Below, in pieces: positions 9,768 to 18,607 of a stretch of 46,500 nt of DNA. Source of the stretch: a virus (lineage: Duplodnaviria; Heunggongvirae; Uroviricota; Caudoviricetes); the IMG/VR virus record IMGVR_UViG_2718218452_000013; one strand, given 5' to 3'. The notes under the pieces are model-generated. The model was not told where the DNA came from. It saw only the letters and a list, made by a program, of their open reading frames with translations, and ran no database searches. How positions within the stretch are numbered: position 1 is the first letter of the stretch; each line of letters starts with the position of its first letter. A program made the translations under genes and the position numbers.

Positions 9768-10095
9768 CAGTTCACCACCTGTTCAAACTCTGCGCTGAAC
9801 TCAACACGCAGCATACTGACCCGCGACGACCATTTTGCGCAGGTCACCTTTATCTGCCGCCACTCATAAGGCGGCGTCCACAGAAAGGCTTTCCAGCCCC
9901 CGTGCTCTTCCAGAAACGACTCCAGTACCGTGGCCTCCTCACGGGGGACAGAAAGCGTCACGCTGTACGTTTTCAGGTTGGCATTCAGCCCGGCAGGCGC
10001 TCGCTGAACAGCCATCACCAAAGCGCACCTTTCTTACAGAAGGGGCCGAAGCCACATCCATACCGGGTTTCACTTTCCAGCGGAAGGTTTTCATC
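9767..10095 (-). pseudogene. M: tail tip protein M, frameshifted
   Basis: ATG at 10095 encodes MKTFRWKVKPGMDVASAPSVRKVRFGDG then leaves frame and hits a stop after about 51 codons; the remaining M sequence (QRAPAGLNANLKTYSVTLSV...EFEQVVN) is in a different frame (ORF 9767..10021). Confidence 0.6.
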
Positions 10096-11509
10096 GTCCA
10101 CCTCCGGAGAACAGACCACCATCACGCATCTGCCCGGTCACAACATCCATTGCCGCCTTACGGGCTACGTCATAAACAGCCTTCAGCGCCTGTGGCCCTA
10201 TCTGACCGTTCGTGCCGTCGTTGTTAATCACCACATGGTTATTCTGCTCAAACGTCCCGGACGCCTGCGACCGACTGTCCGCCATGCTGCCCGGTGTACC
10301 GACATAACCGCCGGTGGCATAGCCGCGCATCAGCCGGTAAAGATTCCCCACGCCAATCCGGCTGGTTGCCTCCTTCGTGAAGACAAACTCACCACGGTGA
10401 ACAATCCCCGCTGGCTCATATTTGCCGCCGGTTCCCGTAAATCCTCCGGTTGCAAAATGGAATTTCGCCGCAGCGGCCTGAATGGCTGTACCGCCTGACG
10501 CGGATGCGCCGCCACCAACAGCCCCGCCAATGGCGCTGCCGATACTCCCGACAATCCCCACCATTGCCTGCTTAAGCAGAATTTCTGTCATCATGGACAG
10601 CACGGAACGGGTGAAGCTGCGCCAGTTCTGCTCACTGCCGGTCAGCATCGCCGCCATATTCTGTGCAATACCATCAAAGGTCTGCGTGGCTGCACTTTTT
10701 ACCTGCGACATACTGTCCGTGGCGCTCTCTTCCCACTCACTCCAGCCGGACTTCAGGCCTGCCATCCAGTTCCCGCGAAGCTGGTCTTCAGCCGCCCAGG
10801 TCTTTTTCTGCTCTGACATGACGTTATTCAGCGCCAGCGGATTATCGCCATACTGTTCCTTCAGGCGCTGTTCCGTGGCTTCCCGTTCTGCCTGCCGGTC
10901 AGTCAGCCCCCGGCTTTTCGCATCAATGGCGGCCCGTTTTGCCCGTTGCTGCTGTGCGAATTTATCCGCCTGCTGCGCCAGCGCGTTCAGGCGCTCCTGA
11001 TACGTAACCTTGTCGCCAAGTGCAGCCAGCTGGCGTTTGTACTCCAGCGTCTCATCTTTATGCGCCAGCAGGGATTTCTCCTGTGCAGACAGCTGGCGAC
11101 GTTGCGCCGCCTCCTCCAGTACCGCGAACTGACTCTCCGCCTTCCACAAATCCCGGCGCTGCTGGCTGATTTTCTCATTTGCTCCGGCATGCTTCTCCAG
11201 CGTCCGGAGTTCTGCCTGAAGCGTCAGCAGGGCAGCATGAGCACTGTCTTCCTGACGATCGCCCGCAGACACCTTCACGCCGGACTGTTTCGGCTTTTTC
11301 AGCGTCGCTTCATAATGCCCCAGTGTGTCCGTAAACTCATAACGGTATTTCACGTTAATCCCGTTCAGATCATCACTGCCGGGAACGTTCGTCCGGGCAT
11401 GAAGATACCCCGCGCTCAGCGTGGACTGATGTTCAGACGCCCATGCAGGCGCACCGGATACGGCCAGACAAATGGCTGCGGACAAAATGGCGGCATAAAG
11501 TTTACGCAT
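10091..11509 (-). CDS. chimeric ORF: Lom signal peptide/N-terminus (64 aa) fused in frame to the C-terminal about 408 aa of tape measure H
   Basis: 472-aa [27 protein letters not shown]...TDTLG then HYEATLKKPKQSGVKVSAGDRQ...GLFSGGGR (H C-terminus); junction at 11317/11318. Confidence 0.55.
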   Translation of the reverse strand: MRKLYAAILSAAICLAVSGAPAWASEHQSTLSAGYLHARTNVPGSDDLNGINVKYRYEFTDTLGHYEATLKKPKQSGVKVSAGDRQEDSAHAALLTLQAELRTLEKHAGANEKISQQRRDLWKAESQFAVLEEAAQRRQLSAQEKSLLAHKDETLEYKRQLAALGDKVTYQERLNALAQQADKFAQQQRAKRAAIDAKSRGLTDRQAEREATEQRLKEQYGDNPLALNNVMSEQKKTWAAEDQLRGNWMAGLKSGWSEWEESATDSMSQVKSAATQTFDGIAQNMAAMLTGSEQNWRSFTRSVLSMMTEILLKQAMVGIVGSIGSAIGGAVGGGASASGGTAIQAAAAKFHFATGGFTGTGGKYEPAGIVHRGEFVFTKEATSRIGVGNLYRLMRGYATGGYVGTPGSMADSRSQASGTFEQNNHVVINNDGTNGQIGPQALKAVYDVARKAAMDVVTGQMRDGGLFSGGGR

Positions 11510-17329: not shown

Positions 17330-18607
17330 CAGTGCCTTGTTCAGTTCTTCCTGACGGGCGGTATATTTCTCCAGCGGCGTCTGCAGCCGTTCGTAAGCCT
17401 TCTGCGCCTCTTCGGTATATTTCAGCCGTGACGCTTCGGTATCGCTCTGCTGCTGCGCATTTTTGTCCTGTTGAGTCTGCTGCTCAGCCTTCTTTCGGGC
17501 GGCTTCAAGCGCAAGACGGGCCTTTTCACGATCATCCCAGTAACGCGCCCGCGCTTCATCGTTAACAAAATAATCATCCTTGCGCAGATTCCAGATGTCG
17601 TCTGCTTTCTTAAACGCAGCCTCTGCCTTAATCAGCATCTCCTGCGCGGTATCAGGACGACCGATATCCAGCACCGCATCCCACATGGATTTGAATGCCC
17701 GCGCAGTCCTGTCTGCCCAGGTCTCCAGCGTGCCCATGTTCTCTTTCAGGCGGCGGGTCTGGTCATCAAACCCTTTCGTTGCGGCCTCGTTCGCCGCCTG
17801 CAATGCCCCGGCTTCATCGCCGGAACGCTGCAACTGAGCAACATACGCAATCTGCTCCGTCGTCACGTTATGGAACTGGCGTGCCATCGCCGTCAGCCCC
17901 GACGTCGGGTCTGTGGTCAGCTTCCCGAAGGCTTCAGCGACCTTGTCCACCTCCACGCCGGATGCAGAGGAGAAACGCGCCACACTCTGGCTGATGGACG
18001 CAATCTGAGCCTCACCGCTTACCCCCGCCTTAACCAGTGCGCTGAGTGACTCGCTGGTCTGGTTAAACGTCAGCCCTGCCGCCTGCCCGGCTCTGGACAG
18101 GACCAGCATACGATCTGCCGTCAGTCCCGCCTGATTGCCGGAAAGGACCAGCGTTTTGTTGAAATCGGACAGGGTTGAGTTGCCCTGATACCAGGCATAC
18201 GCCAGCGCACCGGTCGCCACCGCCAGCGAGGTGGCCCCCACCATCGGCAGGGTGATCGCACCGGCAAGCCCCCTGAACATGGGGATCATCCCGCCGAAGG
18301 AGTCCTTCACCTGCCCCCCCTGTTGCAGCAGGATCAGCCACGGACTTTGCCCGCCTGCAAGCTGCGTGGCCACGTCGGTGAACTGTGCAGGCAGCATACG
18401 CATGGCGGCTTTATACTGCCCGACGGAAATCCCCGCTTTCTGTGCAGCCAGCGCCTGTCGGCTCAGCGACTGTTCAACGACTGCCGCTGTTTTTTTCGCA
18501 TCACTTTCCGTACCGGAAAAATGACGCCTGACTCTGGCCATCTGCTCGTCAAATCTGGCCGCATCCAGACTCAAATCAACGACCAGATCGCCTACCGGTT
18601 CAGCCAT
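14867..18607 (-). CDS. H: chimeric ORF: tape measure H N-terminal 426 codons fused in frame to J' (J residues about 312 to end, variant C-terminus)
   Basis: 1246-aa [33 protein letters not shown]...[12 protein letters not shown] then [30 protein letters not shown]...; junction at 17329/17330 on a codon boundary. Confidence 0.6.

Follow-up and report, generated by a model that had tools for sequence, protein, structure and literature searches.

The chromosome of Escherichia coli strain C3, a cow isolate (NZ_CP010119.1), carries a lambda-like prophage at the DLP12/ompT site, here called W, whose tape-measure gene H is interrupted in the deposited record by two pieces of the tail genes J and lom. 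We analyzed this insertion in the IMG/VR virus record IMGVR_UViG_2718218452_000013, a stretch of 46,500 nucleotides (hereafter the window; record position = window position + 248,781), and conclude that it is probably an assembly or finishing artefact in the deposited C3 chromosome and not a structure of the living genome, a reading to which we assign a probability of about three in four on sequence comparison. The insertion is absent from a sister assembly and from other genomes, its breakpoints lie at repeat edges, and other misjoins and consensus glitches are present in the same data set.

The analysis is based on deposited sequences, without raw reads. Our main comparator was strain C7 (NZ_CP010240.1), a clonal sister from the same series, and a literature search by accession returned nothing on strains C3 and C7 or their assembly pipeline. 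The W prophage of C7 lies at the same site and is 100% identical to the window over 1–4047, 7055–11316 and 17330–30700 (its coordinates are given below as L002); its H is intact at 853 codons, and its gene M is intact too. Beside bio, at the lambda attachment (att) site, both strains harbor another lambdoid prophage, N, with the cargo nleA-cif-nleH, and in C3 the torT site is occupied by a prophage with an H gene in its left arm (Y). Lambdoid prophage tail genes within C3 are 95–100% alike. As further comparators we used 13E0767 (for the J-lom allele of the att-lambda prophage, hereafter the X allele), OkiPb01675 (for the torT prophage) and FDAARGOS_1059 (for the Y-type H allele).

W is read from the minus strand in the order V-G-T-H-M-L-K-I-J-lom-stf-tfa. 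Along the plus strand, the 3' part of H runs to 11316 and is followed by a 3,291-bp piece, a 2,724-bp piece and the 5' part of H from 17330 (Table 1). A preliminary description made from the letters alone had reported two J' copies, identical over at least 2.7 kb, in a 3.3-kb unit, and self-comparison of the window returned just that: one exact run in which 11316–14040 equals 14607–17331 (2,725 bp, 100%) with an offset, and hence a period, of 3,291. The plus-strand joins are 11316/11317, 14607/14608 and 17331/17332, the last with a 2-bp 'CA' ambiguity (17329–17331/17330–17332). The preliminary description rightly had the frame kept across all three, but placed them on codon boundaries and was off by one in its coordinates at two joins; each join in fact sits after the first base of a codon, which is why the reading frame is kept, and the hybrid codons change D446 to H and E123 to Q. 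H is split at codons 426 and 447, with 58 bp (20 codons, KDGKILQADYNTLMAAAKKD) gone relative to C7, in agreement with the roughly 20 codons that had been thought missing. The net change from an intact H is 5,955 bp, a multiple of 3.

The joins themselves have little homology. Exact overlap is 0–2 bp (0, 0–1 and 2 bp for the three), and join B, which connects lom codon 64 to J codon 124, has 0 bp of exact homology bar one chance T. Imperfect microhomology flanks join B (7/9) and join A (about 8/11) and is lacking at join C, and alignments of other genomes continue 9–10 bp beyond joins A and B. The breakpoint in lom, immediately before GCCCCAGTG, is used twice, such that the two inserted pieces have a common lom end (L002 12001); at this base W can be told apart from the X allele and from the two torT-prophage alleles with which it was compared.

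Table 1. Features of the interrupted H gene, the inserted pieces and related loci in the window.
Feature	Position	Strand	Evidence
H (tape measure) codons 1–426, W-prophage allele	17330..18607	-	100% to C7 H, L002 19321–20598
Piece B1: J' codons 313–1132, 66-bp J-lom spacer, lom' codons 1–64 + 1 nt (2,724 bp)	14608..17331	-	100% to C7 resident J-lom, L002 12001–14724; Pfam gpJ domains
Piece B2: J' codons 124–1132, spacer, lom' codons 1–64 + 1 nt (3,291 bp)	11317..14607	-	100% to C7 resident J-lom, L002 12001–15291
H codons 447–853, C-terminal part	10091..11316	-	100% to C7 H up to L002 19262; Pfam Tape_meas_lam_C
Chimeric ORF 1, 1,246 aa: H1–426 fused to J'313–1132	14867..18607	-	Pfam TMP_2 at residues 54–256; annotated WP_073519251.1
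Chimeric ORF 2, 1,074 aa: Lom1–64 fused to J'124–1132	11576..14800	-	ORF reading and Pfam
Chimeric ORF 3, 472 aa: Lom1–64 fused to H447–853	10091..11509	-	ORF reading and Pfam
Resident J-lom tract with X allele of att-lambda prophage	4048..7054	-	304/304 informative sites match 13E0767 and C3 N; flanks match C7 W
Gene M with frameshifting 2-bp deletion (GGG to G, ~10005)	9767..10094	-	Comparison with C7 W and OkiPb01675 torT prophage

The three in-frame chimeric open reading frames (ORFs) that had been described from the interruption of H by J'-lom' units are borne out by ORF reading and Pfam, which places TMP_2, the gpJ domains, Ail_Lom (its first 65–70 positions only) and Tape_meas_lam_C where they are expected. 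An H gene of the usual form would be one ORF of about 853 codons, located between T and M, with TMP_2 toward its N-terminus and Tape_meas_lam_C toward its C-terminus; in W of C3 these domains lie in separate ORFs 6 kb apart, and for the record as written it is true, as had been stated, that an intact tape measure is absent. The J' copies lack residues 1–123 or 1–312 and are therefore fragments, not extra J genes, and the lom' pieces cover positions 1–65/70 of the 199-residue Ail_Lom barrel profile, short of the full barrel. The resident J (4319–7714) is complete, with FNIII-A, Phage-tail_3, Ig_J, Ig_J_second, Phage_Tail_Tip and Ig_GpJ_C domains, as is the resident lom (3652–4251). Compared with phage lambda, the H, J and lom parts of W are ordinary family members by Pfam and the gene order V-G-T-H-M-L-K-I-J-lom-stf is the same; W of C3 differs in that H is split without codons 427–446, the J' and lom' pieces are truncated and an intact tape measure is not encoded.

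The origin of the inserted pieces can be read from their alleles. With identities of 94.8% and 89.8%, the inserted J'-lom' is distinct from the J-lom resident in this prophage, to which its receptor-binding end does not align; it matches the resident W allele of C7 at 3,291 of 3,291 and 2,724 of 2,724 bases. The resident J-lom of C3 differs from that of C7 only within window 4048–7054, the tract with the X allele. This result speaks against a part of the preliminary description, which had offered either a real, very recent duplication or a long-read assembly artefact: the inserts equal the C7 allele and are not copies of the resident genes, and the artefact is the branch that we favor. A simple tandem duplication of the prophage's own J-lom is likewise ruled out, as the copies differ from the resident allele, and a RecA-type tandem duplication by unequal crossing-over finds no exact homology to work with at join B.

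Comparison of W with N in the two strains reveals a reciprocal pattern. In the C3 record, W and N (L011) are base-for-base identical over 3488–7165, a region that holds the resident lom and most of J and has the X allele, with about 300 differences from the allele of C7 W. In the C7 record, W and N are exactly identical over 3488–6464 with the W allele, and the X allele, which we sought in C7, is absent there. Natural relatives carry the W-type J in a W-like prophage and the X-type J in an N-like prophage. As the shared sequence is the X allele in C3 and the W allele in C7, the sister assemblies show opposite overwrites of the same gene pair. Moreover, the chimeric J of the C7 N prophage (L012 28779–32176) is frameshifted by a 1-bp deletion that falls exactly on the only informative single-nucleotide polymorphism (SNP) in the switch interval, an A/G site in GGCGC[A/G]CCATC that is not a homopolymer. 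A true recombinant would hold A or G at this SNP, and a deletion there fits a consensus drawn from mixed reads. W-allele sequence corresponding to 7166–7346 is found both in the two inserted units and at the resident site, and this segment was therefore copied and not moved, which rules out that a J124-lom64 fragment was excised and the gap then repaired from N.

The breakpoints in H coincide with the edges of identity to paralogous H genes. The torT-prophage H of C3 equals the W H over L002 17521–19323 and diverges from 19324, placing the H426 breakpoint (19321–19323) 1–3 bp from the edge of this repeat. In OkiPb01675, a natural relative whose torT prophage matches in layout and in H protein, the nearest differences from W below the boundary are at 19261, 19084, 19081, 19051 and 19033, such that the H447 breakpoint (19262) lies 1 bp from the SNP at 19261 and the 58 bp absent from the C3 H make up the interior of an exactly identical 62-bp block. 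Because these sites vary among relatives, we give this coincidence less weight than the one at H426. C7 contains a second, 21-kb copy of the W left arm that extends to L002 19254–19256 and is joined inverted to a Y-type H whose first base corresponds to 19322. When W is compared with the Y-type H allele of FDAARGOS_1059, the two first differ at base 19254. That unrelated joins in C3 and C7 meet at the same two positions in a 2.5-kb gene points to a common cause at the identity-block edges of paralogous genes, and the behavior of the breakpoints fits ends in an assembly graph.

Both records contain further joins of doubtful character. The duplicated W arm of C7 (DUF968 to H codon ~450) is bounded by two fold-back joins to other prophages, at L007 15987/15988 and L008 24729/24730 (NZ_CP010240.1, 4.9697 and 4.9875 Mb), and its far end is a zero-offset fold-back in the DUF968 gene (window-equivalent 35069/35070) with arms that are 95% alike. 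C3 in turn has a near-palindrome without a spacer, centered at 5333813/5333814 in recE, the gene for exonuclease VIII (L014 3497–6136 = 5332496–5335135), with inner arms 97.7% alike and homology over about 9.5 kb; it is followed by a 14-kb duplicate of 4.286–4.300 Mb and then by junk partial genes to the end of the record. Long spacerless palindromes are not expected to persist in wild-type E. coli. C3 and C7 also differ by a permutation of left arms among their torT, att-lambda and ssrA prophages, and several arms occur twice in C7. Fold-back and chimeric read artefacts are documented in PacBio as well as Oxford Nanopore Technologies (ONT) data (PMC12338684).

The 2-bp deletion that frameshifts M recurs identically in the torT prophage of C3 (L005 24777–25104). 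W and Y of C3 share an exact H-M repeat of 1.8 kb, each copy of which has the deletion, and we found it in neither C7 nor OkiPb01675. Frameshifts that differ between C3 and C7 cluster in prophage genes and not in the backbone genes inspected. At large scale the order of the two chromosomes differs in many places, among them prophage arms that have moved in C7 and a 1-Mb segment that is inverted in C3. Relative to OkiPb01675, the att-lambda and torT prophages of C3 (4.30–4.65 Mb) have inverted order and orientation, which fits an inversion of about 1 Mb that is either real or a wrongly oriented contig. As a separate observation on prophage N, the att-lambda tape-measure gene is frameshifted in both C3 and C7 (L011 34547–36312, L012 34548–36312) and spans about 1,766 bp, compared with 2,580 bp in FDAARGOS_1059.

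The structure also appears confined to this one record. The preliminary description had proposed that related strains be searched for the same junctions, and they do not recur: C7 has an intact H, and junctions A and B are covered by only 1 of the 5,426 complete E. coli genomes searched. The junction sequences gave no exact match in scans of metagenome and viral contigs, and the proteins of chimeric ORFs 1–3 are on no other contig in a large assembly collection.

From the allele bookkeeping, the breakpoint positions and the other misjoins observed in both assemblies we infer how an assembler may have produced the insertion. During assembly, the J-lom of N would have been laid into W, orphaning W's own J-lom allele as a displaced graph branch. 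The orphaned allele would then have been placed in H where a contig or the graph was broken, as two pieces of 3,291 and 2,724 bp that start at one and the same base of lom. This break would lie at the edge of the short exact-identity block common to the torT-site prophage H. Sorting of blocks by their start coordinate on a related reference, followed by concatenation, would yield the observed order, orientation, shared end and homology-free joins. The in-frame fusions would be chance, with odds of about 1 in 27 for three in-frame joins, and H in the true prophage would be intact, as it is in C7.

Several points weigh against an artefact. The consensus of the insert and its flanks is error-free, with 0 differences from C7 over 6 kb, which argues for good read support and against junk from single reads. 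A Quiver-type read polisher ought to restore true alleles at uniquely anchored loci, and the pure X allele at W is thus better accounted for by a real conversion, unless the polishing did not work or used short reads. Mid-contig joins without homology are not normally made by overlap assemblers, and two of the three joins have the imperfect flanking microhomology seen in real microhomology-mediated events. The coincidence of H447 with SNP 19261 presumes that the true torT allele of C3 resembles that of OkiPb01675, and the support for an artefact is throughout indirect.

The alternative that survives best, though we consider it unlikely, is a real and recent complex rearrangement in C3. Here, H would have broken at a homology boundary during an interaction between W and the torT prophage and been repaired by template switching, or by end joining with capture of filler DNA. 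J'313-lom'64 and then J'124-lom'64 would have been copied from the prophage's own J-lom, 4–7 kb away, before rejoining at H447, in a process of the microhomology-mediated break-induced replication (MMBIR) or break-induced-replication type. In the same episode or later, homologous recombination would have converted the resident J-lom to the att-lambda allele, and a swap of the H-M segment with the torT prophage would have spread the 2-bp M deletion, leaving a tail-defective prophage with three fortuitous in-frame fusion ORFs. In its strongest form, for which the odds are equally low, this would be a single catastrophic repair event in a polylysogen, with alleles exchanged with two other prophages and in-frame fusions of H to J and of the Lom signal peptide to J and to H as its products. 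It would amount to an analogue of chromoanasynthesis in bacteria, limited to the tail genes of prophages.

Several points favor such an event. The insertions are templated from nearby sequence in the same orientation, join overlap is within the 0–2 bp given above with flanking microhomology at two joins, and the consensus across the insert is flawless. A donor D-loop trapped in the 62-bp identity block would explain cuts at both its ends, the X tract looks like a clean double-crossover replacement at 304/304 sites, and the att-lambda prophage region encodes Bet and Exo. Other points count against it. At least three illegitimate and three homologous switches would be needed in one clone, and the allele that served as template is no longer at the resident site. 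One lom base serves twice as an end, and the breakpoints in H fall where C7 has an unrelated fold-back join. In the sister strain the 'conversion' runs the other way and the switch SNP bears a consensus glitch, and a real event in C3 would have to coincide with an artefactual overwrite in that assembly. Both assemblies hold spacerless fold-backs that E. coli is not expected to tolerate. Finally, no second occurrence was found in the genomes, contigs or protein collection searched.

MMBIR, fork stalling and template switching (FoSTeS) and template switching in break-induced replication are described mainly in eukaryotes. The C3 insertion resembles MMBIR/FoSTeS products in its consecutive switches, nearby same-orientation templates and small deletion in the acceptor, and perhaps in the short or absent homology at its joins, for each of which MMBIR would predict about 2 bp or more. 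It differs in that the inserted allele is absent from its supposed source site in C3, so that the template is not in fact nearby, and in that one template end is reused exactly. The insertion also shares features with long-read misassembly in multi-prophage E. coli, of the kind that involves near-identical lambdoid repeats, chimeric or fold-back reads and joined contig ends: the structure is unique to one assembly with breakpoints at the edges of repeats or identity blocks, alleles are homogenized between paralogous prophages with a consensus indel at the allele-switch SNP, and fold-back joins and duplicated arms are present in the records of both C3 and C7. Documented fold-back artefacts differ from the insertion in H, whose three joins are direct and enclose two co-oriented pieces with a shared end.

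Far less probable still is that the insertion is real DNA from a subpopulation or from extrachromosomal molecules, for example aberrant recombinant phage genomes after spontaneous induction, that the assembler wrote into the chromosome. In its favor, C3 carries numerous lambdoid prophages that look inducible and have recombination genes, the insert is of good consensus quality, and a mixed pool of templates would suit the mixing of alleles between W and N. This explanation leaves the identity-block-edge breakpoints in both sisters and the fold-backs elsewhere unexplained. Two other origins can be dismissed. A circle of 3.3 kb opened at random would not leave an insert that stops exactly at the unit boundary, and a random ligation chimera from library preparation does not fit H ends just 58 bp apart and the double use of one lom end. 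Near the lom64 and J124 breakpoints there are Chi-like octamers whose orientation and cut position are unsuited to RecBCD, and we take them as coincidence. A CAGTG motif near three breakpoints is a post hoc observation.

If the insertion is an artefact, two RefSeq 'complete' genomes, those of C3 and C7, carry misjoined and homogenized prophage regions. WP_073519251.1 ('phage tail tip domain-containing protein') and the nearby pseudogene calls would then be unfit as evidence of natural H-J fusions, of prophage decay or of recombination among prophages. Were the insertion real, it would stand as a well-resolved case of repair by multiple template switches among lambdoid prophages of one host; in biological terms it would still be another defective prophage.

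Downstream of lom in the same prophage, the side tail fibre gene stf (673–3593) is annotated as frameshifted and reads as two overlapping ORFs of 516 and 469 aa. C7 shares this frameshift, which may therefore be real.

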